DNA of 32,000 bases from NCBI RefSeq assembly GCF_001457595.1, contig NZ_LN831039.1:300001-332000 (forward strand). Reading direction: 5' to 3'. Below, in pieces: positions 6,253 through 24,452 of the stretch. This DNA is from Mycolicibacterium smegmatis (GTDB lineage Bacteria; Actinomycetota; Actinomycetes; Mycobacteriales; Mycobacteriaceae). The position numbers were made by a program, and so were the translations under genes. Numbering within the stretch: the first letter of the stretch is position 1; each line of letters opens with the position of its first letter. The notes under the pieces were generated by a model. The model had not been told where the DNA came from. It ran no database searches and was given only the letters and a program-made list of their open reading frames with translations.

Positions 6253-7074
6253 GTGAACATGACCGATCTGGGCGACTACCTGCGCAGTCGACGCGCACTG
6301 GTCACCCCGGCCGACGTCGGGCTGCCTGCTGTCGGGCACCGCCGCGTGCCCGGGTTGCGCCGCGAAGAGGTGGCGTTGCTCGCCGGCCTGAGCGTCGACT
6401 ACTACATCCGGCTCGAGCAGGGCCGGGAACGTTCCCCGTCGGCTCAGGTACTGGAGGCGCTCGCGGCGGTGTTGCGGCTCGACGAGGACGGGCGCCGGCA
6501 CCTGTTCGCGGTCGCCGGGCTGACCCCGCGGATGCGGCTCGCCCCGGTGCCCGACCGGGTGGACCCGGCGTTGATGCGGCTCATGGCGGCCTGGCCCGAC
6601 AACCCGGCTCTGGTGTACAACCGCGCCTACGACCTGCTGGCCTCCAACACGCTGGCGGATGCCCTGTACGACGGCATCCTGCACGACAACATGCTGCTGA
6701 TGGTGTTCACCGAACCGCGGGCTCGCGAGCTGTACGCCGACTGGCCGGTGATCTCCGCCGACGCGGTTGCCGGATTCCGCATGAACCACGGCATCGCCCC
6801 GCACGATCCGCGCATCGACGCGGTGCTGAAAGAACTGCTCGACCGCAGCGCGGAGTTCGGCGAGTTGTGGGCCAGGCACGACGCCCGGGGGAAGTCCGCC
6901 ACGGTCAAGAGCTTCCGGCATCCACAGGTGGGCGCCCTGACCCTGCAGATGCAGACGTTCGACGTGCGGTCCGCGCCCGGCCAGGAACTGGTGGTCTACC
7001 AGGCTGAGCCGGGTACGCCCAGCGCCGACGCGTTGAAGCTGTTGGGGAGTCTGGCTGCCACGGCAGACGCGTGA
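6253..7074 (+). CDS. XRE-family HTH regulator, MmyB-like
   Basis: 273 aa from GTG 6253, or 271 aa from ATG 6259. N-terminal LGDYLRSRRALVTPADVGL...RRVPGLRREEVALLAGLSVDYYIRLEQGR is the characteristic MmyB-type HTH. It is divergent from an SDR, which is a common pairing for this family. Confidence 0.85.
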   Translation: MNMTDLGDYLRSRRALVTPADVGLPAVGHRRVPGLRREEVALLAGLSVDYYIRLEQGRERSPSAQVLEALAAVLRLDEDGRRHLFAVAGLTPRMRLAPVPDRVDPALMRLMAAWPDNPALVYNRAYDLLASNTLADALYDGILHDNMLLMVFTEPRARELYADWPVISADAVAGFRMNHGIAPHDPRIDAVLKELLDRSAEFGELWARHDARGKSATVKSFRHPQVGALTLQMQTFDVRSAPGQELVVYQAEPGTPSADALKLLGSLAATADA

Positions 7075-7089
7075 ATAGCATGTGAAGCC

Positions 7090-8082
7090 GTGACTGCACA
7101 TGGCCAGGCCTCCGGTGGTCCCTACTTCGACGATCTCAAGGTCGGGCAGGTCTTCGACACCGCGCCGTCGATGACGCTCACCGAGGGGGCCGCGGCGGCG
7201 CACCAGGCCGTCATCGGCGACCGTTTGCGCCTGTCGCTGGACGCCGAACTCTCCTCGGCGGTCACCGGAGAGCCGGGACCGCTCGCGCATCCGGCGCTGG
7301 TGTGCGACGTGGCCATCGGGCAGAGCACGCTGGTCACGCAGCGTGTGAAGGCCAACCTGTTCTACCGCGGCCTGGCGTTCCACAGGTTCCCGGTGATCGG
7401 TGACACCCTGACCACCCGCACCGAAGTCGTCGGACTCAAGCAGAACTCGAACAAACCGGGCCGGGCGCCGACAGGTCTGGCGGCGCTGCGGATGACGACC
7501 ACCGACCACAAGGACCGCCTGGTCCTCGACTTCTACCGCTGCGCGATGCTCCCGCTGTCCGAAAATGGCGGTGACACCGGGTATTCCGATGATCTGTCCG
7601 CGATCGGTGCCGACGCGTCGCCGACGCCGACAGCGCATTGGGACGCCGACGCCTACCGTGCGCGGGTGCCGGGACCGCATCTCGACGATCTACGTGACGA
7701 ACTGGCGGGTGCGGTGTTGCGCAGCACGGCCGACGTTGTCAGCAGCGCCCCCGAACTCGCCAGGCTGACGCTGAACATCGCTGCCACGCACCATGACTGG
7801 CGTTCCGGGGGCAGGCGCCTGGTGTACGGCGGGCACACCATCGGACTAGCGCTGGCGCAGGCCACCCGGTTGCTGCCGAACCTGGTGACCGTTCTGGGCT
7901 GGGAGTCCTGCGACCACACCGGACCCGTCCACGAGGGCGACACCGTGTTCAGCGAACTACATGTCGAATCGATCGAGGCGAATGTGGTGGGCCTGCGCTC
8001 GATCGTGTTCGCCGCGGGTGGGCCCGATGGTGGGGCCGACAGGCAGGTGCTCGACTGGCGGTTCAGTGCGCTGCTGTTCTGA
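7090..8082 (+). CDS. MaoC-like (R)-specific hydratase/dehydratase, double hot-dog fold
   Basis: GTG at 7090, 330 aa. N-terminal FDDLKVGQVF is typical of MaoC family proteins. The length is consistent with two hot-dog halves. Confidence 0.82.
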   Translation: MTAHGQASGGPYFDDLKVGQVFDTAPSMTLTEGAAAAHQAVIGDRLRLSLDAELSSAVTGEPGPLAHPALVCDVAIGQSTLVTQRVKANLFYRGLAFHRFPVIGDTLTTRTEVVGLKQNSNKPGRAPTGLAALRMTTTDHKDRLVLDFYRCAMLPLSENGGDTGYSDDLSAIGADASPTPTAHWDADAYRARVPGPHLDDLRDELAGAVLRSTADVVSSAPELARLTLNIAATHHDWRSGGRRLVYGGHTIGLALAQATRLLPNLVTVLGWESCDHTGPVHEGDTVFSELHVESIEANVVGLRSIVFAAGGPDGGADRQVLDWRFSALLF

Positions 8083-8091
8083 CCGCAACCC

Positions 8092-9225
8092 TTGCCGCAA
8101 ACCGGGGCGGCCTCGGCGATGACCGGGATCTCGGGGGCCGTGGCGGCCCGTGCGCAGCAGGTGGCCGACGCGTTCGCCCGGATGACGGGTGTGGCCGTCG
8201 ATGCCCGGGTGCTGCTCACCGGTCGTGCCGCGCTGCTCGGTATGTGCCCGCAAGGGTGTATCTCGGCAGGTGGTGCGACGCATCTGTTTCCGTCGCGGAA
8301 GGGGACCTGGTGCGCGCTGACGTTGTCGCGACCTGACGATGTGGCCGCCGTGCCTGCCCTGGTGCAGGCCGACACCGTGGACGCCGACCCCTGGCCTGTG
8401 GTCGAGACCTGGGCGGCTGCGACCGAGGCGCACGCCATCACCGAGCGTGCGAGGCTGCTCGGCCTGCCCGCGGCGGTGCTCGGTGAGACAGTCCCTGCGG
8501 CGCCGCGCATCACCCGCATGTGGCCACGGGGAACAGGCAGGCCCTTGACCGGATTGCTGGTGGCCGATCTGTCCTCGATGTGGGCGGGACCGCTGTGCGG
8601 CCAGTTGCTGCGGCAGGCCGGTGCCACGGTGGTCAAGGTGGAAAGTCACGCCCGGCCCGACGGCACCCGCAACGGCCCGCAGGTGTTCTTCGATTGGATG
8701 AACCACGGAAAGCTCTCGTATGTCGCCGATTTCGGCGAACCCTCCGCGCTGGGGGCGCTGCTGGATGTCGCCGACGTCGTGATCGAGTCCTCGCGGCCCA
8801 CCGCACTGGTGCGGCGTGGTCTCGGCCCGGACGTGGTGGCATCGCGCGAAGGCCGGGTGTGGGTGCGGATCACCGGCCACGGCACCACCGGTGAGCACGC
8901 CGACTGGGTGGCCTTCGGCGACGACGCCGCGGTGTCCGGTGGCCTGGTCAAGAACCACCATGGCACACCAAGTTTCGCGGGCGACGCGATCGCCGACCCG
9001 CTCACCGGTCTGCACGCCGCACACGCGGTCGCCGAATCCCTCACGCGCGGTGGCGGGGACCTGATCGAGTTCGCGATGTCCGCGGTCGCCGCGACATACG
9101 CGGATCTGGCGACCACCGGTGCTGATATCGCCACCGTCGAGCCCGCATCTGCGCCGGCCGGGCCCGCCCTCGGCGCCGACAACGGCGCCGTGACGAGGCT
9201 GATCGCCGGGAGCCGGCCATGCTGA
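8092..9225 (+). CDS. Family III CoA-transferase (CaiB/BaiF type) with atypical architecture
   Basis: TTG at 8092, with an alternative ATG at 8119. The hallmark motif PLTGLLVADLSSMWAGPLCGQLLRQAGATVVKVESHARPDGTR sits near residue 150 rather than at the N-terminus. Downstream are VADVVIESSRP, ITGHGTTGEH and IADPLTG. Confidence 0.82.
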   Translation: MPQTGAASAMTGISGAVAARAQQVADAFARMTGVAVDARVLLTGRAALLGMCPQGCISAGGATHLFPSRKGTWCALTLSRPDDVAAVPALVQADTVDADPWPVVETWAAATEAHAITERARLLGLPAAVLGETVPAAPRITRMWPRGTGRPLTGLLVADLSSMWAGPLCGQLLRQAGATVVKVESHARPDGTRNGPQVFFDWMNHGKLSYVADFGEPSALGALLDVADVVIESSRPTALVRRGLGPDVVASREGRVWVRITGHGTTGEHADWVAFGDDAAVSGGLVKNHHGTPSFAGDAIADPLTGLHAAHAVAESLTRGGGDLIEFAMSAVAATYADLATTGADIATVEPASAPAGPALGADNGAVTRLIAGSRPC

Positions 9226-11629: not shown

Positions 11630-11666
11630 ACGCATACGGGGCGGCACGGGTGGGTACTCCGCACCG

Positions 11667-13124
11667 ATGGACCAAACCGAGACGCCTCTGCTCGACGCGC
11701 TGAACGAGTACCACGCGTCCAACCGGTACGGCTACTCCCCGCCCGGCCATCGACAGGGCCGCGGCGTCGACGACCGTGTGCTGCGTGTGCTGGGACGCGA
11801 ACCGTTCCTCAGTGATGTGCTGGCCAACGGCGGCTTGGACGACCGCCGCAGCAGCAACGGCTACCTGCAGAAAGCCGAGGATCTGATGGCCGAGGCGGTG
11901 GGAGCCGACACCGCGTGGTTCTCCACCTGTGGCAGTTCGCTGTCGGTCAAGGCCGCGATGATGGCCGTCGCGGGCGGCGACGGCAGCCTGCTGCTGAGTC
12001 GCGACAGCCACAAGTCTGTGGTCGCCGGCCTGATCTTCTCGGGTGTGATGCCACGCTGGATCACGCCACGGTGGGACGCCGACCGGCACCTGTCGCACCC
12101 GCCGTCGCCCGAGGAGGTCGAGGAGACCTGGCGGCGGTATCCCGACGCCGCCGGTGCGCTGATCGTGAGCCCGAGCCCGTACGGCACGTGTGCCGATCTC
12201 GCCGGCATCGCCGACGTATGCCATGCCCGGGGTAAACCGCTGATCGTCGACGAGGCCTGGGGCGCCCACCTGCCGTTCCACGAGAACCTGCCGACATGGG
12301 CCATGGACGCGGGCGCGGATGTGTGCGTGGTCAGCGTGCACAAGATGGGCGCGGGTTTCGAGCAGGGCTCGGTGTTCCACCTGCAAGGTGATCTCATCGA
12401 TCAGGACCGGTTGTCCGCGTGTGCCGACCTGCTGATGACCACGAGCCCGAATGTGCTGGTGTACAGCGCGATCGACGGCTGGCGACGGCAGATGGTCGAA
12501 CACGGCCACCGATTGTTCAGTGCGGCACTCGATCTCGCCGATGACACCCGCCGTCGCATCGAGGAGATCGACGACGTCGAGGTGCTCGACGAAGAATTAC
12601 TCGGCGCGCAGGCCTCGCACGATCTGGACCGGTTGCAGATCCTCATCGACGTGTCGGCCACCGGCACCTCGGGCTACCAGGCCGCCGACTGGCTGCGGGA
12701 GAACTGCCAGGTGGACGTCGGGATGTCCGACCATCGCCGGATCCTGGCCACCATGTCGGTGGCCGACGGATCCGATACCGCGGGGCGCCTGCTGCACGCA
12801 CTGTCGTTGTGGCGCAAGGCCGCAGATGACTTCGCGCCGCCGCCCCCGATCGATCTCCCGTCGCCGGCCGAACTCCAGTTGACAACGGAGACCTCTCCGC
12901 GGGATGCGTTCTTCGCCGAGGTCGAACAGATCCCGGTCGAGCATGCGGTGGGCCGCATCGCCGCCGAGCAGATCACACCCTATCCGCCCGGGATCCCCGC
13001 GGTGGTGCCGGGGGAGCGACTCAACGAAGCAGTGCTCGACTACCTCGTGACCGGCGTGCAGGCGGGTATGAACCTGCCGGATCCGGCCGATCCGCAGATG
13101 GGCTCCATCCGGGTCATGGCCTGA
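11667..13124 (+). CDS. PLP-dependent Orn/Lys/Arg decarboxylase family protein
   Basis: ATG at 11667 gives MDQTETPLLDALNEYHASNRYGYSPPGHRQG, a typical N-terminus for the short (about 480-aa) members of this family. SVHKMGAG contains the PLP lysine. 485 aa. Confidence 0.85.
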   Translation: MDQTETPLLDALNEYHASNRYGYSPPGHRQGRGVDDRVLRVLGREPFLSDVLANGGLDDRRSSNGYLQKAEDLMAEAVGADTAWFSTCGSSLSVKAAMMAVAGGDGSLLLSRDSHKSVVAGLIFSGVMPRWITPRWDADRHLSHPPSPEEVEETWRRYPDAAGALIVSPSPYGTCADLAGIADVCHARGKPLIVDEAWGAHLPFHENLPTWAMDAGADVCVVSVHKMGAGFEQGSVFHLQGDLIDQDRLSACADLLMTTSPNVLVYSAIDGWRRQMVEHGHRLFSAALDLADDTRRRIEEIDDVEVLDEELLGAQASHDLDRLQILIDVSATGTSGYQAADWLRENCQVDVGMSDHRRILATMSVADGSDTAGRLLHALSLWRKAADDFAPPPPIDLPSPAELQLTTETSPRDAFFAEVEQIPVEHAVGRIAAEQITPYPPGIPAVVPGERLNEAVLDYLVTGVQAGMNLPDPADPQMGSIRVMA

Positions 13125-13743
13125 CATCTGCTGCGACACGCAGATCGTCGACCAGGCCCGCGAACGCGGATTCGCGTTCCTCCTTGGGTCCGCGCAGCAG
13201 AGACGACGGGTGAACGGTGGCGACCAGCGCCGGATCTCCCGGTTCGTCGTCGACGTGCAGGACCTCGCCGCGATGCTGCGTGACGCGAAAGTCGTTGCCC
13301 AGCAGTGCCTTGGCGGCGGTTGCGCCGAGCAGCACCACGACATCGGGCTCCACGGAGGTCATCTCGGCGATGAGCCAGGGACGGCACGCCACCACCTCGG
13401 TACGACTGGGGGTCTTGTGGATGCGTCGTTTGCCTCCCGCTGCCCGCGTGAACTTGAAGTGCTTGACCGCGTTGGTGACGTAGAGGGCATCGCGGTCGAT
13501 GTCGGCGGCGTCCAGCGCGCGGTCCAGGAGCCGGCCCGCGGGACCCACGAAGGGCAGGCCCGCCAGGTCCTCTTTGTCACCGGGCTGCTCGCCGATCATC
13601 ATGATGCGTGCCGAGCGCCCGCCCGCGCCGAAGACCGCCTGCGTGGCGTCGCGATACAACCCGCAGCCTCGGCATTCGCCTGCCGCGGCAGCGAGTTCGG
13701 CCAGGTCCGCCGTGTGGGGGACGAACTCCTGCGCACCTGCCAT
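13114..13743 (-). CDS. udgX: UdgX-type uracil-DNA glycosylase superfamily protein (family-4-like, covalent uracil-DNA binder)
   Basis: Starting at ATG 13743 gives 209 aa. It has motif A GEQPG (residues 51-55), the GGKRRIHKT insertion with His at residue 109, motif B HPSSLLR, and Cys ligands (ECRGCGL, VVACRPW). This matches my recollection of M. smegmatis UdgX, including the H109 numbering. Confidence 0.93.
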   Translation of the reverse strand: MAGAQEFVPHTADLAELAAAAGECRGCGLYRDATQAVFGAGGRSARIMMIGEQPGDKEDLAGLPFVGPAGRLLDRALDAADIDRDALYVTNAVKHFKFTRAAGGKRRIHKTPSRTEVVACRPWLIAEMTSVEPDVVVLLGATAAKALLGNDFRVTQHRGEVLHVDDEPGDPALVATVHPSSLLRGPKEERESAFAGLVDDLRVAADVRP

Positions 13744-13831
13744 GTCCGATGGGATACCCACTTCCCGGGTTGATTGCTGTTTCAAAACCCGCCGTACGGG
13801 TAATCACCGCCCGCAACAGCGAGAGGAAACC

Positions 13832-14848
13832 ATGAGCAGCAGCGTGAGCACCATCGATGCCAGGCCGGATCAGCCGGCCGGCAAGCAGATCCTGCATCGT
13901 CGCCGCAGCGCGGAGTCCTTCGCTCTGGCCGCAGGCTGTCGCGCGTTCGTACGCAACGCTGTTCGCGTGTGGGCCATGCAGCCGAATCTCGCGTGGCCAC
14001 TCGGCTCGATCGACCGCATGGTGGGCCTCTTGCCGCACCGGGTCGATGCCAAGATCCGGTCCGTCCAATTACCCGACTGCGCCGCGGAATTGGTGTGTGC
14101 GAACGGGGTGAGCGCAGATCGCGCGATTCTCTACCTGCACGGCGGCGCGTTCATGACGTGCGGTATCAACACGCATCGCTCACTCGTGGCGCGGCTTTCC
14201 AGAGAGGCCGACGCCGCGGTGCTCAACGTCGGATACCGCATGCTCCCCAAATACGGTCTGGCCGAGGCGATCGACGACGCCGTGGCCGGTTTGCGCTGGC
14301 TGCAGGAGCAGGGTTACACGTCGGATCAGATCGTGATCGCCGGGGACTCGGTGGGCGGCTATCTCGCGCTGGCCACCGCGTTGCAGCTGTCTTCGCGCGG
14401 CGAGGTGCCCGCGGCCGGGATCGCGGCGATCTCGCCGCTGACCGATCTGGATCCCGCGAGCAAGCTCGAACACCCCAACGCCCGCAAGTGCGCGATGTTC
14501 ACAGGCGCCGCACTCGCGGGGTTCGCGAAGTATCTGCACCGCTGTGAGCGTCGCCCCGTCAGCCGTCGGGAGGCGGCCGCGTTGGTGAACCCGGTGACGG
14601 CCGACCTGACGAAGCTACCGCCCGTGACGGTGCACGTCAGCGCCGACGAGTCGCTCTACTCCGATTCCGAACTTCTGGCCGGCAGGCTCGCGGAGGCCCA
14701 GGTGCCCTGTGAGCTGCATGTGTGGCACGGGCAGGTGCACGATTTCCCGCTGGCGGCAGACATCTTGCCCGAGGGTCGTCGGGCGCTGCGCTACGTCGGT
14801 GACTTCGTCAAGCAGACGACGGGCACCCGGCTGGCGAACGTCTCCTGA
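13832..14848 (+). CDS. Alpha/beta hydrolase fold-3 esterase/lipase (HSL family)
   Basis: ATG at 13832 follows GAGAGGAAA. It has the LYLHGGAF oxyanion motif and the GDSVGG nucleophile elbow. 338 aa. The part of the track ORF upstream of 13832 is antisense to udgX. Confidence 0.88.
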   Translation: MSSSVSTIDARPDQPAGKQILHRRRSAESFALAAGCRAFVRNAVRVWAMQPNLAWPLGSIDRMVGLLPHRVDAKIRSVQLPDCAAELVCANGVSADRAILYLHGGAFMTCGINTHRSLVARLSREADAAVLNVGYRMLPKYGLAEAIDDAVAGLRWLQEQGYTSDQIVIAGDSVGGYLALATALQLSSRGEVPAAGIAAISPLTDLDPASKLEHPNARKCAMFTGAALAGFAKYLHRCERRPVSRREAAALVNPVTADLTKLPPVTVHVSADESLYSDSELLAGRLAEAQVPCELHVWHGQVHDFPLAADILPEGRRALRYVGDFVKQTTGTRLANVS

Positions 14849-15649
14849 TCAGCCGACCTGACGGTGCAGCGTCACCGAGGCCGTGCGGTTGTCGGTGCCG
14901 CTGTTCGACGCGGCCGCGATACCGCGGCCTTTCGCGGTCACCGCGAGCGCGGTGCGGTCGCCGCGGAACAGATCGCGCGAGAACTCGTACGGTGTGCCGG
15001 TCTGATCGAAGGTGACGCGCGTGATCAGCAGAAGCGCGGCCTTGGGCTTGATGCCCAGCAGGGTGGCCTCGTTGCTCGTGGCGTTGACGGCTTCGATGCG
15101 CTCGTCGGCACGGCCGGGCACCAGACCGTACTGCGATTCGAGGACCTCGTAGAGCGATCCGCCGAGCTGCTGTTCGAGCAGACCCGGAAACTTCTCGGCC
15201 GGAAACTGCGCCTGCTCAAGGGATATCGGGGACCCGTCGGCCAACCGCACACGCTGGATCTCGACGACGTACTCTCCCGGCCCGAGACGCAGCGCGGTAC
15301 GGGTGGTCTGGTCGGGCGTGGTGATGCGGGTCGACAGGATTCGGGTGCCCGCCACATATCCCTGATTGGCGAGGAACGCCGGGACGCCCACCACGTCCGA
15401 CAGGTTGCGTTCCACCTGGCCGTGGCTGATGAAGATGCCGCCGGACCGCCCGATCACGCGGTGGACCAGGCCGGCCTCCTCCAGGGCGGCCAGTACCTGA
15501 CGCAGGCTCGAGCGGCTGGTGCCGTACTTCTCGGCGAGGTCGCGTTCGCTTCCGAGCTTGGCGCCCGGTGTTCCCGCGTTGATGTCGGCGACCAGACGGC
15601 GTCGCAACTCCTCGCTCTGTACTGGCACCAGACCCCCTCGCCCGCGCAT
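14849..15649 (-). CDS. GntR-family regulator, HutC subfamily (wHTH + UTRA), last gene of the BMC operon
   Basis: The wHTH is LGSERDLAEKYGTSRSSLRQVLAALEEAGLVHR, followed by a UTRA-like C-terminal domain. The start is ATG 15649, or GTG 15628, which has a better SD (GAGGGGG). The gene abuts the convergent esterase, with the two stop codons forming TGATCA. Confidence 0.88.
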   Translation of the reverse strand: MRGRGGLVPVQSEELRRRLVADINAGTPGAKLGSERDLAEKYGTSRSSLRQVLAALEEAGLVHRVIGRSGGIFISHGQVERNLSDVVGVPAFLANQGYVAGTRILSTRITTPDQTTRTALRLGPGEYVVEIQRVRLADGSPISLEQAQFPAEKFPGLLEQQLGGSLYEVLESQYGLVPGRADERIEAVNATSNEATLLGIKPKAALLLITRVTFDQTGTPYEFSRDLFRGDRTALAVTAKGRGIAAASNSGTDNRTASVTLHRQVG

Positions 15650-15668
15650 TGGTACAGCCAATTCTAAA
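15647..15668 (-). promoter_or_regulatory. Candidate internal promoter/operator in front of the BMC-locus GntR gene
   Basis: The minus strand reads TTTAGAATTGGCTGTACCAATG. It contains a -10-like TAGAAT (15661-15666) fused to the inverted repeat ATTGG-N5-CCAAT (15648-15662), which overlaps the ATG. The core ATTGGCnnTACCAA recurs at 22833-22846. Confidence 0.4.
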
Positions 15669-15677
15669 CCGGTCGAG

Positions 15678-16493
<816 letters not shown>

Positions 16494-17498
16494 TCAGGTC
16501 AGGCGCAGTCCGTCGGACGACAGATAGCGCTCGGCGAGTGCGCAGCTGCCCGCGGCGTAGCTGATCGCCTTGGTGGCGGATTCCCGGGAGTGGGTGTGGC
16601 TGCCCATCCAGGCCAACAGCAGGAGCCTGCGCAGGAACACGAACGACGGCAGCATGGCCTCGTCGGCAGCGGCCAGCTCGCGTCGGGAGCGATAGCCCGC
16701 CACCCAGGACTCCTGCCATTCGCCAAGCCGCGGGTCGTCTTCGATGAACGACACTGCTGTGCCGAAATCGTAGAAATACCAACCGAATCCGCAGTCGTCG
16801 AAATCGATGACGGTGATGGTGCGTTGCGGCGTCGACGAGTCGACGAGCAGGTTGGCCAGACGCAGGTCGGCGTGGATCAGCCCGTAGCGGTCAGGTCCGG
16901 AGCCGTATTCCTTCAGCTTGCGGTGCAGCAGGTCCTGTGCGCGGGTGAGCAGTGCGGTCTCGGACGCGCCGACGCCTTCGGCGTCCTGCCACCGTCCCCA
17001 GCGTGGTGTGTCGCCGAGGCAGTGTTCCCAGTCCCATGAGAACCGGCCGAAACCCGCAGGACGGGTCCACCGCTGCGAGTGTTCGTGCAGGGACGCGGTG
17101 ATGCGCCCGAGGGTCTGGAAATCGTCGAGGGTCAACGATTCCTCGTCGGGCTCGGCGCCGCCGACCATCTCGAAGTGCACCACGTGACGCGGGACCGCGT
17201 CGGAATCGGCGGGGTCGACCGTGACCACACGGCGTCCGTCGCGCGCGGGCACCACCGTGGGCACCGTGACATCGCTGTCGGTGCGCAGGGCAGCCAACCA
17301 GTCGAGTTCGGACTCGATCTCGTGCGGCTGGTGGTAGTCCTGCCGGTGAACCCTCAGGATCGACTGGTGCTCGCCGTCCTCGACCAGGTAGGTCGCGTTC
17401 TCGGACAGGTTGAGCAGTCGCAGGGACGCGTTGTCGGAGACGTCGTAATGCGTCAGTGCCTGTTGTGCGATGGTGACATCGTCGGTGATCACGCCCAT
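16494..17498 (-). CDS. APH-family small-molecule kinase (probable amino-alcohol / 1-amino-2-propanol kinase)
   Basis: 334 aa. It has the Brenner motif IHADLRLANLLV and the metal-binding VIDFDD. The N-terminal lobe is homoserine-kinase-II-like. Its ATG shares one nucleotide with the stop codon of the upstream BMC-T gene (TGATG). Confidence 0.9.
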   Translation of the reverse strand: MGVITDDVTIAQQALTHYDVSDNASLRLLNLSENATYLVEDGEHQSILRVHRQDYHQPHEIESELDWLAALRTDSDVTVPTVVPARDGRRVVTVDPADSDAVPRHVVHFEMVGGAEPDEESLTLDDFQTLGRITASLHEHSQRWTRPAGFGRFSWDWEHCLGDTPRWGRWQDAEGVGASETALLTRAQDLLHRKLKEYGSGPDRYGLIHADLRLANLLVDSSTPQRTITVIDFDDCGFGWYFYDFGTAVSFIEDDPRLGEWQESWVAGYRSRRELAAADEAMLPSFVFLRRLLLLAWMGSHTHSRESATKAISYAAGSCALAERYLSSDGLRLT

Positions 17499-18154
17499 CA
17501 GTGTTCCTGCCCTTCGATCGCGCTCAGCACGGTGGTGATGTGATCGCGCGCCACCGTCACCTCATCGGTGCTGCCACCGATGTAGAGGCGTCCGGCCGCG
17601 CCGATCATCTGCACGTCGACCACGGTAAGCCCGGGAGCCACGCGCTCGGCCTCATTGGCCGCCACCGCCGCGAACAACGCCGGCGTCATCTCGTACACCA
17701 GCAGCGACTGCCCCGGCAGGATCATCGACGCCTGCCGGTTGCGGTTGAGGATGACCGCGTGCTGGTCGGTGATGTCGGTGATGATGTCGTGGAAGAGCAC
17801 GCGCGGGCGCAACTGGTCCTCGGCCCTGTTGCCCGTGCCCGCGAGGATCGCCTCGCCCGCGCGACGTACCTCGTCGAGGCTGGCCGAGTGGATCTCCAGT
17901 ACGCCGAACTGCCGCTCGACGTAGAGGATTCCGGGCTGGACGCCCGGCACCGCGCGCAGCGCCAGGTCGATCACGCGCTCGATCGCCAGTGCCGGGGACA
18001 CCTCGACGATCAGCGCGTGCTCGCCCTCGTACGGCGGATAGCCGCGGGCCCGGGTCGGGGTACCGAGGTAGGCCGCGAACTGCCGCTGCAGGTCTTCGAC
18101 CAGCAGGTAGACGCGGATCTGGGTACGGATCCTCTCGGTTTCCGGTGCGACCAT
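17498..18154 (-). CDS. Tandem BMC-domain shell protein (BMC-T type), copy 1
   Basis: 218 aa with two BMC-like halves (ALIVEVSPALAIERVIDLALRAV...VERQFGVLEIH and LLVYEMTPALFAAVAANEAERVAPGLTVVDVQMIGAAGRLYIGG). It is a paralog of the gene at 19255-19863. Confidence 0.9.
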   Translation of the reverse strand: MVAPETERIRTQIRVYLLVEDLQRQFAAYLGTPTRARGYPPYEGEHALIVEVSPALAIERVIDLALRAVPGVQPGILYVERQFGVLEIHSASLDEVRRAGEAILAGTGNRAEDQLRPRVLFHDIITDITDQHAVILNRNRQASMILPGQSLLVYEMTPALFAAVAANEAERVAPGLTVVDVQMIGAAGRLYIGGSTDEVTVARDHITTVLSAIEGQEH

Positions 18155-18156
18155 GG

Positions 18157-18438
18157 CTACTTGCTGGACACCGAGAAGTGCGCGCCCAGTTCGCTGTGCG
18201 GACGCGGGATGACATGCACGCTGACGAGTTCGCCGACCTGCGAGGCGGTTTCGGCGCCGGCCTCGGTCGCGGCCTTGACCGCGCCGACCTCACCCGTGAC
18301 GATCACCGCGACGAGTCCGTCGCCCACCTGCTGGCGGTCGGTGATGGTGACGTTGGCGGCCTTGACCATGGCGTCGGCAGCGGCCAGGGCGGCCACGTAA
18401 CCCTTGGTCTCGATCAATCCGATTGCGTTGCTGGACAT
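18157..18438 (-). CDS. BMC-H hexameric shell protein (PduA/EutM/CcmK-like)
   Basis: 93 aa. The sequence MSSNAIGLIETKGYVAALAAADAMVKAANVTI...GLVAVIVTGEVGAVKAATEAG is a canonical PF00936-type sequence. SD GGAGA lies upstream. Confidence 0.96.
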   Translation of the reverse strand: MSSNAIGLIETKGYVAALAAADAMVKAANVTITDRQQVGDGLVAVIVTGEVGAVKAATEAGAETASQVGELVSVHVIPRPHSELGAHFSVSSK

Positions 18439-18450
18439 GGGTTTATCTCC

Positions 18451-18714
18451 TTACTCGGCGGGGTTGCTATCTGATCTGGTGTCGATGGAGCCGATGATGA
18501 GGGCGTCGATCGGCGGTGGCGTCCCGGTGAACCAACTCGACGCCACCGAGCCCTGGGCGATCAGGACGTGTTCGCCCACGCCGCTGCCGAGGACGTCGAA
18601 GGCGATCATCCGGCTGCCGGTGCCCTCGACCTCGACCTCCAGGAACGCGCCGGCCGGGATGCCCTCGATCCGGCGCGTCGACCACACATTGCCGGTGACG
18701 GTCGCTCTCAACAC
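18451..18714 (-). CDS. BMC-P pentameric vertex protein (EutN/CcmL family)
   Basis: 87 aa. MLRATVTGNVWSTRRIEGIPAGAFLEVEV...VLIAQGSVASS is the typical EutN/CcmL pattern. GTG start at 18714, with AAGGAG 6 nt upstream. Confidence 0.93.
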   Translation of the reverse strand: MLRATVTGNVWSTRRIEGIPAGAFLEVEVEGTGSRMIAFDVLGSGVGEHVLIAQGSVASSWFTGTPPPIDALIIGSIDTRSDSNPAE

Positions 18715-18730
18715 GTTCGCTCCTTGATGG

Positions 18731-19258
18731 TCATCTGCGCTCCTTTTCGATCACGATTCCCAGCGTCCGGGCCTTCTCGCGGGCCAGCGGCGTGAGCACC
18801 GCGCGCGGGCCGAGCACCAGGGTGCCGCCGGCCAGGTCGGCGATGTGCCGTTCGGTGACGGCGCCGCTGTCGATCCGGTGCGTGACCTGCGCCTGTCCGT
18901 TCGCCATGGCCGCGCCCGATCCCGGAGCCAGCCGGAAGCGCAGCCGCCCGGCCTTGAGGTCGGCGCGTGTCTTGGGACTTTCGAAGAGCCGCAGAAGCTT
19001 CCGCACGAATGTGTCGAGATCCTTGTCGTCGGTCAGGCGCACGGTCTCGGTGCGGTTGCGTCCCTCGACGGCCCGTGGCCCCGTCGGTTCCAGGCCCATC
19101 TGGTCGGCGACGGTCGCACGTGGCGGGGGCGCAGGCGGGGCCGGCTTCGATGCCTGATTCGACGCCTGCGCCGACGAGGAGTTCAGGCTGCCCACGGCCT
19201 CGCGCACGACTTCCCGTACCAGGGCGCGCAATTCCTCACGCGTGATGCCCATGCTCAC
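18731..19258 (-). CDS. BMC-associated protein of unknown function (amphipathic N-terminal helix, Pro/Ala linker, C-terminal globular region)
   Basis: 175 aa with good GC3 bias. The start is GTG 19258 (a GTGA overlap with the upstream stop) or ATG 19252. N-terminus is ITREELRALVREVVREAV, followed by SKPAPPAPPPR. The C-terminus carries AVTERHIADLAGGTLVLGPRAVLTPLAREKARTLGIVIE. I cannot assign a family. Confidence 0.75.
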   Translation of the reverse strand: MSMGITREELRALVREVVREAVGSLNSSSAQASNQASKPAPPAPPPRATVADQMGLEPTGPRAVEGRNRTETVRLTDDKDLDTFVRKLLRLFESPKTRADLKAGRLRFRLAPGSGAAMANGQAQVTHRIDSGAVTERHIADLAGGTLVLGPRAVLTPLAREKARTLGIVIEKERR

Positions 19259-19863
19259 GCACCCTGCAGGACGGCGAGCGCGTCACGCGCGGCGTCGGCG
19301 GCCTGGCGGACGTCGGCCTCGGTTCCTGAGAGGTACACGCGACCGGTGGCGCCGATCATGCGGAAGTCCACAACTTTGACGTCGGCGGCCTTCTCGGCCT
19401 CGTTGGTGGCGAGGATGGCGTACGACGCCGGGGCCACCTCGAGCACGAACAGCGATTCACCGGGGAGCACCATCGATCCGATCTTGTTGCGGTTGATCAG
19501 GAATGCGTGCTGGTGGTCGATGCTGGAGATGATGCGTGACGCCAGGATCTCGGGCCGTACCGCGGCGTCGGGATCGCCGCCCAGGTAGTCCAGCGCGGCG
19601 TCGGCGGCGGCCTTCACCGCGCCGGTCTCACCGTGGAACTCCAGATAGCCGAACTGGCGCTCGACCACCAGGATCCCGGCCTTCACCTCGGCGTGCTTGA
19701 GGGCGACGTCGGTGACACCCTCGATGTCGAGTCCCGGTGCCACCTCGATGATCTGGGCGGCCATGTTCGCGCGGGGCAGCGCACCCTTGATCCAGGTGCC
19801 CAGGTACGACATCGTCTGCGGCTGGAGCCGGTCGATGAAGATGAAGGAACGTAGTTCTGCCAC
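19255..19863 (-). CDS. Tandem BMC-domain shell protein (BMC-T type), copy 2
   Basis: GTG at 19863 is preceded by AAGAGGTGA. 202 aa. The halves QIIEVAPGLDIEGVTDVALKHAEVKAGILVVERQFGYLEFHG and LFVLEVAPASYAILATNEAEKAADVKVVDFRMIGATGRVYLSG align with copy 1. Confidence 0.9.
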   Translation of the reverse strand: MAELRSFIFIDRLQPQTMSYLGTWIKGALPRANMAAQIIEVAPGLDIEGVTDVALKHAEVKAGILVVERQFGYLEFHGETGAVKAAADAALDYLGGDPDAAVRPEILASRIISSIDHQHAFLINRNKIGSMVLPGESLFVLEVAPASYAILATNEAEKAADVKVVDFRMIGATGRVYLSGTEADVRQAADAARDALAVLQGA

Positions 19864-19871
19864 TTTGGGGG

Positions 19872-21455
19872 TCACCTCTTGATCAGTTGGGCGAGTTCTT
19901 CGACGACCAGCGCGCGTAGTTCGGCGCGCAGCGCGTCCAGGTTGACGTCCGTTGTGCGCGAGGGGCTCTGGTAGGAGCGCTGCGGAGCCGCCTGGATCAC
20001 GGCGCCGTCGCGGTCGTTGGAGGCGCGCGGATACGCCGGTACCGGCCCGGCGGGCGCACGCCACGGATCGATTCCGGTGAAGTTGCCCATCACGACGCCC
20101 GGGTCACTGTTGTAGGCGATGCGGGTCCAGTTCACGAGGTTGTGCGGCTGCAGGTTCTCACCGATGGAACTGCGGCCCACGAAACCGGTGCCGATGGTCA
20201 TCGACGGGGCGAGGTTGGTGTCCAGGCCCGCGCTGCCGGTGCTGTTGCCGACGTTGACCGAGACCCGGAGCACGGGGACCTGTGCCGCGAAATCGGTGAT
20301 CACTGCGGGGTTTTCGCTGTGGATGGCGGCCGAGTGCCCGGCGCCGCCGATCCGCACCACCGCGCGGGCCGCCCGGATGCCGCGCGCGGCGTCGGCCACA
20401 GTGGTCATGCCGAGCACCGGGGACAGCTTCTCGTGGGCCAGCATCTCCTCGGCGATCACGTGGTCGAACGGTGCGATCAGCACGCGCGTCTTGGGTGTGA
20501 CCCGCAACCCGGCCTGACCGGCGATCCACGCGGCGTCGCGCCCGACCACGTCGGTGTTGAGGTGACCGTCGGCGAACATGTACGCGCGCAGCCGCCGGGC
20601 CCCGTCCTCGTCGAGGATGTGGGCGCCCGCGCGGGTGAGCGCGGCGCGGAGTTTGTCGGCGACGGCGTCCTCGGCGATCAGCACGGATTCGTTGGTGCAC
20701 AGCACCGAGTTGTCGAAGGCCTTGCTGTCGACGATGCGCTGCGCGGCGGCGGCGACATCGGCGCTCGCGTCGACGAGGACGGGGACATTGCCCGGTCCGA
20801 CGCCCAGTGCTGGGTTGCCCGACGAGTACGCCGCGCGCACCACGGCGGTGCCGCCGGTCGCGACGATGACGTCGGTGCGCTCGTCGGCCATGAGGGCCTG
20901 CACCAGCGGGATGGACGGCTCGTCGATCACCTGCACCACGCCGTCGGGCGCCCCCGCCGCCACCGCGGCCTCGGCCAGCACACGGGCGGCCTCGGCCGAA
21001 CACCGCGCCGCACGCGGGTGCGGCGCGACCACCACGGCGTTGCGGGTCATCAGCGCCAGAATCGTCTTGAAGTACACCGTGGCAACGGGATTGGTGGTGG
21101 GCGTCAGCGCCAGGACCACGCCCGCCGGCCGCGGGAGTTCGACGATCTTGCGGTCCGGATCGACCCGGGGGGAGATGTAGTCGTGCCCGCGGTAGTACTC
21201 GACGATTCCCCTCGAACACGCCCGGTTCTTGCGGACCTTGTCCGCGACCACGCCCATGCCGGTCTCGGCCACCGCGTCGGCGGCGAACCGCTCGGCATGA
21301 GCGTGTGCGGCCTCGGCCACGGCTGCGACGATGCCCTCGACCGTCGCCGCGTCGTACTCGCCGTAGGCCGCAGCGGCCCAGCGCGCACGCTCGAGCATGT
21401 GGCCGGCCCGCGCGGTGTCGACTGCGCTGCGCCGGTCTTGGATCACTTCGCTCAC
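19872..21455 (-). CDS. CoA-acylating aldehyde dehydrogenase (EutE/PduP-like) with a C-terminal extension
   Basis: GTG at 21455 forms a GTGA overlap with the aminotransferase stop, and GGAGGAA lies upstream. 527 aa. It has the catalytic-Cys context FDNSVLCTNES. A ~70-aa Pro-rich tail ends in the helix NLDALRAELRALVVEELAQLIKR. The track ORF extends artefactually to 21881. Confidence 0.9.
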   Translation of the reverse strand: MSEVIQDRRSAVDTARAGHMLERARWAAAAYGEYDAATVEGIVAAVAEAAHAHAERFAADAVAETGMGVVADKVRKNRACSRGIVEYYRGHDYISPRVDPDRKIVELPRPAGVVLALTPTTNPVATVYFKTILALMTRNAVVVAPHPRAARCSAEAARVLAEAAVAAGAPDGVVQVIDEPSIPLVQALMADERTDVIVATGGTAVVRAAYSSGNPALGVGPGNVPVLVDASADVAAAAQRIVDSKAFDNSVLCTNESVLIAEDAVADKLRAALTRAGAHILDEDGARRLRAYMFADGHLNTDVVGRDAAWIAGQAGLRVTPKTRVLIAPFDHVIAEEMLAHEKLSPVLGMTTVADAARGIRAARAVVRIGGAGHSAAIHSENPAVITDFAAQVPVLRVSVNVGNSTGSAGLDTNLAPSMTIGTGFVGRSSIGENLQPHNLVNWTRIAYNSDPGVVMGNFTGIDPWRAPAGPVPAYPRASNDRDGAVIQAAPQRSYQSPSRTTDVNLDALRAELRALVVEELAQLIKR

Positions 21456-22732
21456 CCGTTCCTCCGTCCGGTGACAGTCGCCCGCGCCCGGCCCACCGCG
21501 ACCTCGAGGCGGTCCAGCACGTCCTCGCAGAGCTCGCGGGACAGCAGCAGGCCCGGTTTGAACTGCAGTACACGGGGATCCAGCGTCGAGAAGATCGCCC
21601 ACACCCCGTTCTCGTAGAGTTCGCGCATCACGAACTTGGCGCCTTCGGGGTGGTCGAACTCGAGTCCGATCACCACCCCGTTCTGCCGGATGCCGACGAA
21701 CCAGTCCGGGTAGTCGGCCTGGATGCGCCGCAACCCGGTGTCGAAGATGTCGGCGATGTAGTGCACCATCGAGCGCACCTCGGGCCGGGTGCAGATCTCC
21801 AGCGTCTTGATCGCCGCGACACAGCCGAGTTCGGCCCCACCGAAGGTGGAGATGTGGCCGAACCCGTCCTGGTCGAGCCACCGCGCGGCCCGCTCACCGA
21901 GCAGCACCGCCGAGATGGGGTACATGCCGCCCGAAAGGCCCTTGCCCGTCACGATGATGTCCGGGTCGATGCCGTGCTTGGTGATGCCCCACAGCTCGCC
22001 CGTGCGCATCAGCCCGGTCTGCACCTCGTCGGCGATGTAGAGCGTGCCGTGCCTCTCGGTCAGCGCCTTGACGGCTTCGAGGTAACCCGGTGGGGGAAGC
22101 GGGAATCCGTAGGTCGCGGGGATGGTCTCCATGATCACCGCGGCCACGTCGCCGCCGGCGAGTGCGGCCTCCATGGCACCGATGTCACCGAAGGGCACCT
22201 GGATGAACTCGTCGGGCCGGTCGGCGAGGAACAGTTTGGCGAACCGGTCGTCGCCGGTGGCGACCGCCAGGCCGGTGTGCCCGTGGTAGGCCTTGATGAC
22301 CGAGACGATCTTGCGGCGCTGGGTTCCGTGGCGCGCGCTCTTGAGTGCGATGTCGATGGCCTCGCCGCCGCCGGAACCGAACGCGACCTTCTTGATGGAC
22401 GCGGGCGCGGTTTCCACGAGGCGCTTGGCGAGTGCGGTCCTGGCAACCGACGGGAAGTGGTGGTTGCCGACGTCGAAGTGCGCCATGCCTTCCGAGATCG
22501 CCTGCATCACTTCGGGATTGCGGTGACCGATGTTGTAGGTGCCGCCGTTGAGGTGGAGGTCGATGAGCCGGCGTCCGCTCATGTCCCACAGGAAGTACCC
22601 CTCCCGGCGGTCGATCACCAGATCGACGCCGGAGTCGGTCCAGAACTGGGTCTTGTCCGGATTCCAGAACGCCTTGGCCTGGTCCAGCACATCGGCTTTG
22701 GACGCGAACGCGAACGTGCCGTAGTCGTACAT
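21452..22732 (-). CDS. Class III PLP aminotransferase-fold enzyme (probable aminopropanol-phosphate phospho-lyase)
   Basis: 426 aa. PLP-lysine context DIIVTGKGLSGG. The fold is class III aminotransferase throughout. SD AAGAGGGAG lies upstream of ATG 22732. It is the first gene of the BMC operon. The lyase role is inferred from knowledge of the RMM pathway. Confidence 0.9.
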   Translation of the reverse strand: MYDYGTFAFASKADVLDQAKAFWNPDKTQFWTDSGVDLVIDRREGYFLWDMSGRRLIDLHLNGGTYNIGHRNPEVMQAISEGMAHFDVGNHHFPSVARTALAKRLVETAPASIKKVAFGSGGGEAIDIALKSARHGTQRRKIVSVIKAYHGHTGLAVATGDDRFAKLFLADRPDEFIQVPFGDIGAMEAALAGGDVAAVIMETIPATYGFPLPPPGYLEAVKALTERHGTLYIADEVQTGLMRTGELWGITKHGIDPDIIVTGKGLSGGMYPISAVLLGERAARWLDQDGFGHISTFGGAELGCVAAIKTLEICTRPEVRSMVHYIADIFDTGLRRIQADYPDWFVGIRQNGVVIGLEFDHPEGAKFVMRELYENGVWAIFSTLDPRVLQFKPGLLLSRELCEDVLDRLEVAVGRARATVTGRRNG

Positions 22733-22746
22733 GCGGCTCCCTCTTG

Positions 22747-22761
22747 AGCTACCGGGTAGCT
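22747..22761 (-). promoter_or_regulatory. 15-nt perfect palindrome AGCTACC-G-GGTAGCT in the predicted 5' UTR of the BMC operon
   Basis: Read directly from the sequence. It lies between the predicted transcription start (about 22767) and the SD (about 22737-22745). Confidence 0.35.
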
Positions 22762-22773
22762 GTGATGGCCCTC

Positions 22774-22803
22774 ACCGTAAAAGGTTGCAACCATTTCTGT
22801 CAA
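22774..22803 (-). promoter_or_regulatory. Candidate sigma-A-type promoter of the BMC operon, with the palindrome GGTTGCAACC in its spacer
   Basis: The minus strand reads TTGACA (22803-22798), an 18-nt spacer, then TACGGT (22779-22774, fits TANNNT). The perfect 10-bp palindrome GGTTGCAACC (22783-22792) lies wholly inside the spacer. It extends to a near-palindrome at 22779-22796. Confidence 0.5.
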
Positions 22804-22830
22804 TGGTGTGAAGAACCTCTTGCATCTGAG

Positions 22831-22852
22831 ATTTGGTAGTGCCAATATACGT
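22831..22852 (-). promoter_or_regulatory. Second copy of the ATTGGCnnTACCAA motif, with an overlapping -10-like TATATT
   Basis: The minus strand reads ACGTATATTGGCACTACCAAAT. The core at 22833-22846 matches 15649-15662 at 12 of 14 positions. TATATT is at 22849-22844. The site lies 101-114 bp upstream of the operon ATG and 71-84 bp upstream of the permease ATG. Confidence 0.4.
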
Positions 22853-22916
22853 ACGGTTCAAGATGTGGTCCACGCCACACCTGGCCTACACTGTAACCTG
22901 GAAGGTAAGCCGCTAG

Positions 22917-24452
22917 ATGACCGAACAATCCGTCGCTGGTAGCGAAAACGCAGCTCACGACATACAACGCCTCAAGCGGAACGCCGTCGGCACCGTCGGG
23001 GTGATCTTCATGGCGGTGGCCACCGCCGCCCCGATCACCGCAATGGTCGGCAACGTTCCGATCGCCGTCGGTTTCGGAAATGGTTCACACGCTCCCGCGG
23101 GCTACTTCGTCGCCACGGTGGTTCTGGGCCTGTTCGCCATCGGCTACGCGACGATGGCCAAGCACATCACCGCCACCGGCGCGTTCTACGGGTACATCTC
23201 CCATGGTCTCGGGCGCATCGTCGGTATGGCCGCAGGCGGTCTCATCACGATGGCCTACGTCGTGTTCGAGGCCTCGCTGATCGGTATCTTCTCGTTCTTC
23301 TTCCAGAACTTCCTGGACTCCCAGCTCGGCATCCACATCCACTGGATCATCCCGGCCCTGCTGATGCTGGCCACCAACGCGATCCTGACGTACTTCGACG
23401 TCAACCTGACCGCCAAGGTGCTGGGCGTGTTCCTGGTGACCGAGATCGTCATGCTCGCCCTCGGTGCGGTGGCGGTGCTGTTCCGCGGCGGTGGACCCGA
23501 CGGGTTCGCGGTCAATGAGATCCTCAATCCCGCAGGAGCATTCAGTCCCGCAGCCGGCATCGTCGGTGCGAGCGCCGGACTCGGTCTGTTCTTCGCGTTC
23601 TGGTCGTGGGTCGGATTCGAGTCGACGGCCATGTACGGCGAGGAATCACGCAACCCCAAGCGGATCATCCCCCGCGCCACCATGATCGCCGTCCTCGGCG
23701 TCGGCGTGTTCTACGTGTTCATCTCCTGGATGGCCATCGCGGGAACCGGTCCGCAGCAGTCGATCGAGCTCGCGCAGGACGCCAACACGGCGTCGGAGAT
23801 CTTCTTCGCGCCCGTCCGTGACACCTACGGCGAGTGGGCCATCACGGTGTTCAACATCCTGCTGGTCACGGGATCGTTCGCGTGCGGCATGGCGTTCCAC
23901 AACTGCGCGTCGCGGTATCTGTACGCGCTCGGCCGTGAGGGCCTGTCGCGGGGTCTGCAGAAGACCCTGGGCGCCACGCATCCCACCCACGGGTCGCCGT
24001 ACATCGCGTCGTTCGTGCAGTCCGCCATCGCACTGGTGATCGTGTTGTCGTTCCTGTTCGCGGGCATGGATCCGTACGTGCACATGTACACGCTGCTGGC
24101 GATCCTCGGGACCATGGCCATCCTGATCGTGCAGTCGCTGTGCGCGTTCTCGGTGATCAGTTACTTCCACATCCACAAGAACCATCCGGAGTCCAAGCAC
24201 TGGTTCAAGACACTCGTCGCGCCCGGCCTCGGCGGTCTCGGCATGCTGTATGTCGTGTACCTGCTGTGGGAGCACAAGGACACCGCGGCCGGAACCGCCT
24301 CGGGCACACTGCTGTTCAAGCTCACACCGTGGATCGTGGTGAGTGTGTTCGTGCTCGGCGCGGCCCTGGCCACCTACTTCAAGCTGCGGGACCCCCGCCG
24401 CTACGGGTTGATCGGCCGCATCGTCTACGACGAAGCCGTCGAACGCGACTAG
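22917..24452 (+). CDS. APC-superfamily amino acid/amine permease
   Basis: 511 aa, about 12 hydrophobic segments, with an APC-like N-terminal region (LKRNAVGTVGVIFMAVATAAPITAM). It is divergent from the BMC operon and is a plausible substrate importer. Confidence 0.92.
   Translation: MTEQSVAGSENAAHDIQRLKRNAVGTVGVIFMAVATAAPITAMVGNVPIAVGFGNGSHAPAGYFVATVVLGLFAIGYATMAKHITATGAFYGYISHGLGRIVGMAAGGLITMAYVVFEASLIGIFSFFFQNFLDSQLGIHIHWIIPALLMLATNAILTYFDVNLTAKVLGVFLVTEIVMLALGAVAVLFRGGGPDGFAVNEILNPAGAFSPAAGIVGASAGLGLFFAFWSWVGFESTAMYGEESRNPKRIIPRATMIAVLGVGVFYVFISWMAIAGTGPQQSIELAQDANTASEIFFAPVRDTYGEWAITVFNILLVTGSFACGMAFHNCASRYLYALGREGLSRGLQKTLGATHPTHGSPYIASFVQSAIALVIVLSFLFAGMDPYVHMYTLLAILGTMAILIVQSLCAFSVISYFHIHKNHPESKHWFKTLVAPGLGGLGMLYVVYLLWEHKDTAAGTASGTLLFKLTPWIVVSVFVLGAALATYFKLRDPRRYGLIGRIVYDEAVERD

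Follow-up and report, generated by a model that had tools for sequence, protein, structure and literature searches.

The closest described relative of the gene considered here is udgX of Mycolicibacterium smegmatis mc2155 (MSMEG_0265). Its product, MsmUdgX, forms a specific complex with uracil-containing DNA that is stable to sodium dodecyl sulfate, urea and heat (PMC4787834). Excision of uracil is followed by a bond between residue H109, which E52 activates, and C1' of the abasic sugar; Q53 stabilises the loop and R184 serves substrate recruitment (PMC10359453). PMC10776899 adds D56, D59, F65, N91, K94, R107 and H178 as further contributors. Mutation of H109 turns the protein into a turnover glycosylase (PMC4787834, PMC10359453), and both the mechanism and a dependence on RecA rest on experiment (PMC4787834, PMC10359453, PMC10776899). 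The class goes back to a 2015 description by the Varshney laboratory, followed by two crystal-structure papers in 2019 and later mutational work, and MsmUdgX is already in use as a reagent for uracil detection and base editing. Its physiological role is still called "largely unknown" in the literature. The stretch analysed here, hereafter the window, comprises 32,000 nucleotides (nt) of M. smegmatis DNA (contig NZ_LN831039.1, positions 300,001 to 332,000, assembly GCF_001457595.1). An initial annotation, made from the sequence alone, had assigned one of its genes to UdgX and had summarised the published work and the unclear role accurately.

The assignment is borne out by comparison with the published protein. 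In a phmmer search of all PDB sequences, 206 of the 209 residues (98.6%) matched the crystallised M. smegmatis UdgX (PDB 6AJO, E=3.9e-135). The search also matched 23 more UdgX sequence entries, and conventional family-4 uracil-DNA glycosylases (UDGs) scored far lower (1UI0, 1e-26). The NCBIfam model TIGR03914, "UdgX family uracil-DNA binding protein", is matched over positions 41-230 of 231 with 243.4 bits (cut-off 189.95). The only Pfam domain of the protein is UDG (PF03167), and the model for UDG family 4, TIGR00758, is exceeded marginally (131.3 bits, cut-off 125.3). Three substitutions separate the protein from 6AJO, namely D6E, E78D and V167E. All three positions are variable among close UdgX homologues, and none falls on E52, Q53, D56, D59, F65, N91, K94, R107, H109, H178 or R184. 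All catalytic residues named in PMC10359453 and PMC10776899 are thus intact. An identical protein is already present in NCBI, UniRef and Logan (nine contigs), and the window protein falls into the same 90% cluster as ABK75207 (MSMEG_0265) and proteins of M. goodii. The window therefore derives from a strain of the M. smegmatis group distinct from mc2155. On this evidence, the gene is almost certainly allelic to the type member of the UdgX class, encoding a family-4-derived, [4Fe-4S]-carrying protein, and would perform the same chemistry. That this particular allele (E6, D78, E167) crosslinks to DNA is a very strong inference from the 98.6% identity. The identification is correct but already known, since it concerns a published, crystallised protein.

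The open reading frame (ORF) and its motifs lie where the initial annotation had placed them, with GEQPG at residues 51-55, KRRIH at 105-109 and HPSSLLR at 178-184. Motif B fits the class pattern HPS(S/A)(L/V)(L/V)R. The annotation had treated KRRIH as the diagnostic UdgX insertion. In a BLASTP alignment, a 9-residue gap opens in the Thermus thermophilus UDG (PDB 1UI0) exactly opposite FKFTRAAGGKRRIH of UdgX, and the loop is therefore homologous to the published insertion. Conservation was counted over the 150 closest family representatives, which are 46-69% identical to the window protein. H109 is kept in 147 of them, R107 and H95 in 148 each, E52 and Cys120 in 149 each, and Q53 in 139, while C24 and C27 are kept in 144 and 145, respectively.

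The description of the protein as family-4-UDG-like with iron-sulfur (Fe-S) cysteines needs one correction: the ligands are not four cysteines but three cysteines and His95. The protein contains cysteines only at positions 24, 27 and 120, and its "VKH" stands where 1UI0 has "VKC". The replacement of one Fe-S cysteine of UdgX by histidine was noted by Sang 2015 (PMC4787834). As judged from these alignments, the predicted Fe-S site of the window protein is of the Cys3-His type (C24, C27, H95, C120). The protein thus departs from conventional UdgA, which is recognised by a motif A of GE(A/G)PG, four Cys ligands and no R-loop.

ATG 13743 is the correct start of udgX, because the N-terminus M(A/P)GA(Q/E)xFVP is shared by orthologues across species, the alternative GTG at 13761 is out of frame in Mycolicibacterium sp. 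XJ870 and the mc2155 gene (300761-301390; Martini et al., PMC6448022 supplement) is likewise 630 nt long. Two upstream starts were ruled out: TTG 13785 (223 amino acids) and GTG 13761 (215 amino acids, as in one mc2155 annotation, AFP36740) would both add N-terminal extensions that are unconserved. The GC content at the three codon positions is 0.76/0.50/0.81; with a third-position value of 0.81 and a second-position value of 0.50 in a window of 68% GC, udgX looks like a typical real gene. The ratio of nonsynonymous to synonymous substitution rates (dN/dS), calculated against three Mycolicibacterium orthologues, is 0.07-0.20, and purifying selection therefore maintains the gene.

If it works as the 98.6%-identical protein of mc2155 has been shown to, the window UdgX would flip uracil out of DNA, whether single- or double-stranded, and cleave the N-glycosidic bond, whereupon Glu52-activated His109 in the KRRIH loop would immediately attack C1' of the abasic sugar. 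The protein would then stay irreversibly and covalently bound to the DNA, acting a single time and shielding the apurinic/apyrimidinic (AP) site from base-excision repair. In cells, the adducts would be cleared through RecA-dependent or proteolytic routes. Expression of udgX is probably low-level or condition-specific, driven by a promoter within the 88 nt that separate it from the esterase gene. Nothing in the sequence itself counts against this reading. Two published observations do weigh against it: UdgX protein is undetectable in laboratory cultures of mc2155 (PMC4787834), which may mask regulation, and MSMEG_0265 has no mapped transcription start site (TSS) in log phase or hypoxia (PMC6448022 supplement). 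The same two observations, together with the shallow synteny and the lack of a conserved functional partner described below, would suit an intact gene with practically no expression, a cryptic remnant without a present role in the cell. Such a remnant is improbable, since its dN/dS is that of a gene under purifying selection, the catalytic residues are near-invariant over all 150 representatives, including long forms of the protein, a conserved promoter-like block keeps a constant spacing to the start codon (see below), and the protein is detected when expressed from its native promoter on a multicopy plasmid (PMC4787834). Least credible of all, and scarcely worth entertaining, is an ordinary turnover family-4 UDG of the UdgA type that initiates base-excision repair: the TIGR00758 score just over its cut-off and the 37% identity to the T. 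thermophilus UDG speak for it, but motif A carries Q53 instead of A/G, the KRRIH insertion brings His109, the third Fe-S cysteine is a histidine, and turnover in the 98.6%-identical protein requires mutation of H109 (PMC10359453).

For the self-trapping UdgX thus preferred, two features of the wider family offer modest but testable leads on the physiological role: a general-stress-type -10 element upstream of the gene and a link to DUF4130 and radical S-adenosylmethionine (radical-SAM) enzymes. The first of these concerns the pentamer GGGTA. In four Mycolicibacterium loci, the block AAGTGGGTA[TC] is conserved on the udgX strand, with GGGTA fixed 10-11 nt before the ATG, and this distance holds although an 11-nt indel interrupts another part of the spacer. 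In 34 of 84 udgX loci, GGGTA precedes an in-frame start codon at a spacing of 10-14 nt (N10-14), and 30 of these, the window included, have the N10-11 spacing. A general-stress-type -10 at leaderless distance is thus found in a third of the sampled udgX loci. The pattern heads at most 38 of about 1200 other genes (about 3%) in those loci; GGGTA as such is present in 37 of 83 udgX upstream regions versus 3.5% of random 82-nt windows. The loci concerned belong to Mycobacterium, Rhodococcus, Streptomyces, Micromonospora, Actinomadura, Pseudonocardia, Thermoleophilia and Acidimicrobiia, and none of the non-actinobacterial loci among the 84 shows the GGGTA-N10/11-start pattern. A canonical -35 element accompanies it in several loci (GTTT-N15 in L024, GTTC-N16 in L026 and L015, GTTC-N15 in L027 and L073). 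Of these, L024 is from M. interjectum, and L026 and L027 are from Streptomyces.

A GGGTA 10-11 nt from the start codon has the geometry of leaderless SigF/sigma-B-type promoters, which makes it a candidate -10 element of this kind. Against a SigF promoter of the window udgX stands the lack of a GTTT-like -35 at N14-19; the nearest GTTT lies at N24, and a canonical SigF -35 was rejected for this gene. In keeping with this, published arrays show no SigF dependence of the gene: deletion of sigF changed MSMEG_0265 by log2 values of -0.13 (p=0.79) and -0.83 (p=0.13), neither of them significant. In the same arrays, the decarboxylase and esterase neighbours of udgX drop by 4.4-5.9 log2 units. The GGGTA upstream of udgX is best regarded as non-random, if so far unexplained. 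In two slow-growing Mycobacterium loci (L016 and L019), GGGTA-N10/11-ATG heads an ORF of about 12-13 codons that ends a few nt before the udgX start, and this may be a leaderless upstream ORF.

Other regulatory signals of the region were also considered. The element GTTT-N15-GGGTA listed for the MSMEG_0267 esterase in Table 1 of PMC4694148 matches the one found in the window, and both of its hexamers are conserved in alignment A3. The decarboxylase, too, carries a SigF-type element, with GGGTA-N10-ATG right at its start (11652-11656 (+), ATG 11667), a site that differs from the "GTCG-N17-GGGAT at 160" proposed in PMC4694148. In mc2155, a strong antisense TSS was mapped at 300616 (-), within the 3' part of MSMEG_0266 (Martini et al., PMC6448022 supplement). 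It lies 145 nt downstream of the udgX stop codon and corresponds to about 12969 (-) in the window, where a -10 hexamer of the TANNNT type, TAGGGT, is present at the right distance (12977-12982 (-)). To test for SOS regulation, a LexA box, GAAC-N4-GTTC with at most one mismatch, was sought; it has no site in the udgX upstream region 13744-13831, and its window-wide count is at chance level. A sigma-70 candidate at 13574-13602, located on the opposite strand inside the coding sequence and the sole match in 12900-14000, was treated as a chance occurrence.

The second lead comes from the long forms of the family. Lengths of at least 400 amino acids were found in 44, or about 30%, of the 150 closest representatives. 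DUF4130 (PF13566) was detected in five of six long forms scanned; in four of four, TIGR03915 was N-terminal and TIGR03914 C-terminal, the latter at about 270-300 bits. The C-terminal TIGR03914 domain of these DUF4130-UdgX fusions is 52-58% identical to the window protein, with GEQPG, KRRIH and HPSxxLR intact. Two fused genomic loci were recovered, L049 (5923-8603) and L068 (31-2133), both from Verrucomicrobia. In each, the fusion gene contains GEQPG and KRRIH and lies directly downstream of a radical-SAM "DNA modification/repair" gene of the family TIGR03916, "rSAM_link_UDG". The fusion gene of L049 occupies 7119-8603. The TIGR03916 gene of L049, a metagenome-assembled genome, matches its L068 homologue in two adjacent frames, 6496-6819 and 6821-7180, which suggests a frameshift or assembly error. 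By tblastn, no homologue of the TIGR03916 radical-SAM enzyme or of DUF4130 was matched in the 32-kb window or in 78 stand-alone loci. In a neighbour-joining tree, fused and stand-alone UdgX are interspersed, with at least 22 changes, a result confounded by truncated metagenomic ORFs.

Earlier work had placed DUF4130 alongside SplB-like radical-SAM enzymes and UDGs (PMC3765255), and a 2026 preprint presents a model of a DUF4130-radical-SAM complex. A link between UdgX and radical SAM is implicit in the NCBIfam names; the searched literature contained no paper with both "UdgX" and "radical SAM", and no crosslinking test of fused UdgX domains.

Taken together, the two leads tentatively suggest that UdgX could be a stress-phase module with lineage-specific wiring, an idea that we consider rather less probable than its opposite: a stress promoter in Actinomycetota, a radical-SAM partner in other phyla and a partner-less mycobacterial offshoot. 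Under such a scheme, Actinomycetota, the window included, would transcribe a leaderless udgX mRNA from a SigF/sigma-B-type promoter with GGGTA 10-11 nt upstream, and covalent AP-site capture would join the general stress or stationary-phase response. In other phyla, the His-loop domain would be fused to DUF4130 and form an operon with a dedicated radical-SAM enzyme; if true, this would imply a DNA-protein crosslink that serves as an on-pathway intermediate and is acted on by the partner. The stand-alone mycobacterial udgX would then be an offshoot that has lost its radical-SAM partner.

Table 1. Features of the udgX region, in window coordinates
Feature	Position	Strand	Remarks
udgX coding sequence	13114-13743	(-)	209 amino acids plus stop, ATG 13743; allele of M. 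smegmatis MSMEG_0265
C24-x-x-C27, predicted first two [4Fe-4S] ligands	13663-13674	(-)	align with C13/C16 of 1UI0
Motif A GEQPG, residues 51-55	13579-13593	(-)	E52 activates H109; Q53 UdgX-specific (roles as in PMC10359453)
His95, at the third Fe-S Cys position of family-4 UDGs	13459-13461	(-)	"VKH" versus "VKC" of 1UI0
R-loop KRRIH, residues 105-109	13417-13431	(-)	His109 codon 13417-13419; nucleophile to C1' (PMC10359453)
Cys120, predicted fourth Fe-S ligand	13384-13386	(-)	aligns with C100 of 1UI0
Motif B HPSSLLR, residues 178-184	13192-13212	(-)	H178, R184 (roles as in PMC10359453 and PMC10776899)
GGGTA, candidate SigF/sigma-B-type -10 of a putative leaderless udgX mRNA	13755-13759	(-)	11 nt upstream of ATG 13743
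GTTT-N15-GGGTA, SigF promoter of the esterase	13779-13802	(+)	29 nt before the esterase ATG; shares the 88-nt intergenic region with udgX
Orn/Lys/Arg (pyridoxal phosphate) decarboxylase	11667-13124	(+)	MSMEG_0266 in mc2155; left neighbour, convergent with udgX
Abhydrolase_3 esterase	13832-14848	(+)	MSMEG_0267 in mc2155; right neighbour, divergent from udgX, 88-nt spacer

That udgX sits alone between a decarboxylase and an esterase, as the initial annotation had put it, agrees with the Pfam survey, which detected no DNA-repair domain across the whole 32-kb window. On opposite strands, udgX and the decarboxylase gene share 11 nt at their 3' ends (13114-13124), and a scan of 12900-14000 found no terminator; with this overlap and no terminator-like hairpin found, a transcript of either gene would extend into the other in antisense orientation. 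The order decarboxylase-udgX-esterase also occurs in the two closest loci examined (UdgX 89% and 77% identical). M. mageritense (UdgX 74% identical) retains the esterase-udgX pair alone, a pairing confined to the closest Mycolicibacterium relatives, and the three-gene arrangement was not seen in 80 more distant loci. A conserved functional partner of stand-alone udgX was sought by clustering the ORFs of 81 loci and was rejected, as the best non-overlapping cluster reaches no more than 14 loci, at a distance of about 3.5 kb. The remaining neighbours reflect genus-level synteny, with an MqnC/CofH-like radical-SAM gene and a GNAT gene in Streptomyces, and a GntR-aminotransferase gene and an MFS gene in Micromonospora.

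In Mycolicibacterium sp. XJ870 (L082, 1790-3898) and M. mageritense (L083, 1774-3876), a large KatE-type catalase with a DJ-1/PfpI domain adjoins the esterase-udgX pair; in the former, another GGGTA-N10/11 match starts a 702-codon ORF, equal in length to the catalase product. Beyond the esterase, positions 14849-24452 of the window hold a complete bacterial microcompartment locus of the RMM/Aaum type, for the utilisation of aminoacetone or 1-amino-2-propanol, a system known from M. smegmatis (PMC8007038). Its genes encode a GntR/UTRA regulator, an SDR, an APH-type kinase, a BMC-H protein (18157-18438), an EutN/CcmL vertex protein (18451-18714), another BMC-domain protein, an aldehyde dehydrogenase, a class-III aminotransferase and an amino-acid permease.

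Among the known systems, UdgX of mc2155 (PDB 6AJO, 6AIL, 6IO9, 8IIE-8IIT) is the nearest to that of the window, being equal in length, start, motifs, catalytic residues and Fe-S ligands. The mc2155 locus has the same neighbours, and the decarboxylase, udgX and esterase genes are identical in length to those of the window, whereas the udgX-esterase spacer measures 88 nt in the window and 87 nt in mc2155. The window protein and the family-4 UDGs (UdgA, e.g. 1UI0) belong to one alpha/beta UDG fold family, PF03167; in both, motif A reads GExPG and motif B HPxxxLR, and a [4Fe-4S] site is common to them. The window protein differs from the family-4 UDGs by Q53 in place of A/G, by the 9-residue insertion with KRRIH and His109, and by His95 in place of the third cysteine. 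Whereas family-4 UDGs turn over, UdgX acts once and is covalently self-trapped. Compared with the DUF4130-UdgX fusion proteins, the window protein is without their DUF4130/TIGR03915 domain of about 260 amino acids. SRAP proteins (HMCES/YedK) are unrelated to UdgX in fold and chemistry, as they use an N-terminal Cys that forms a thiazolidine; they lack a glycosylase step, and their substrates are pre-existing AP sites in single-stranded DNA. The resemblance to SRAP proteins is one of functional analogy only, in that a covalent protein adduct shields the abasic site in both cases, and the parallel with HMCES is cited in PMC10359453.

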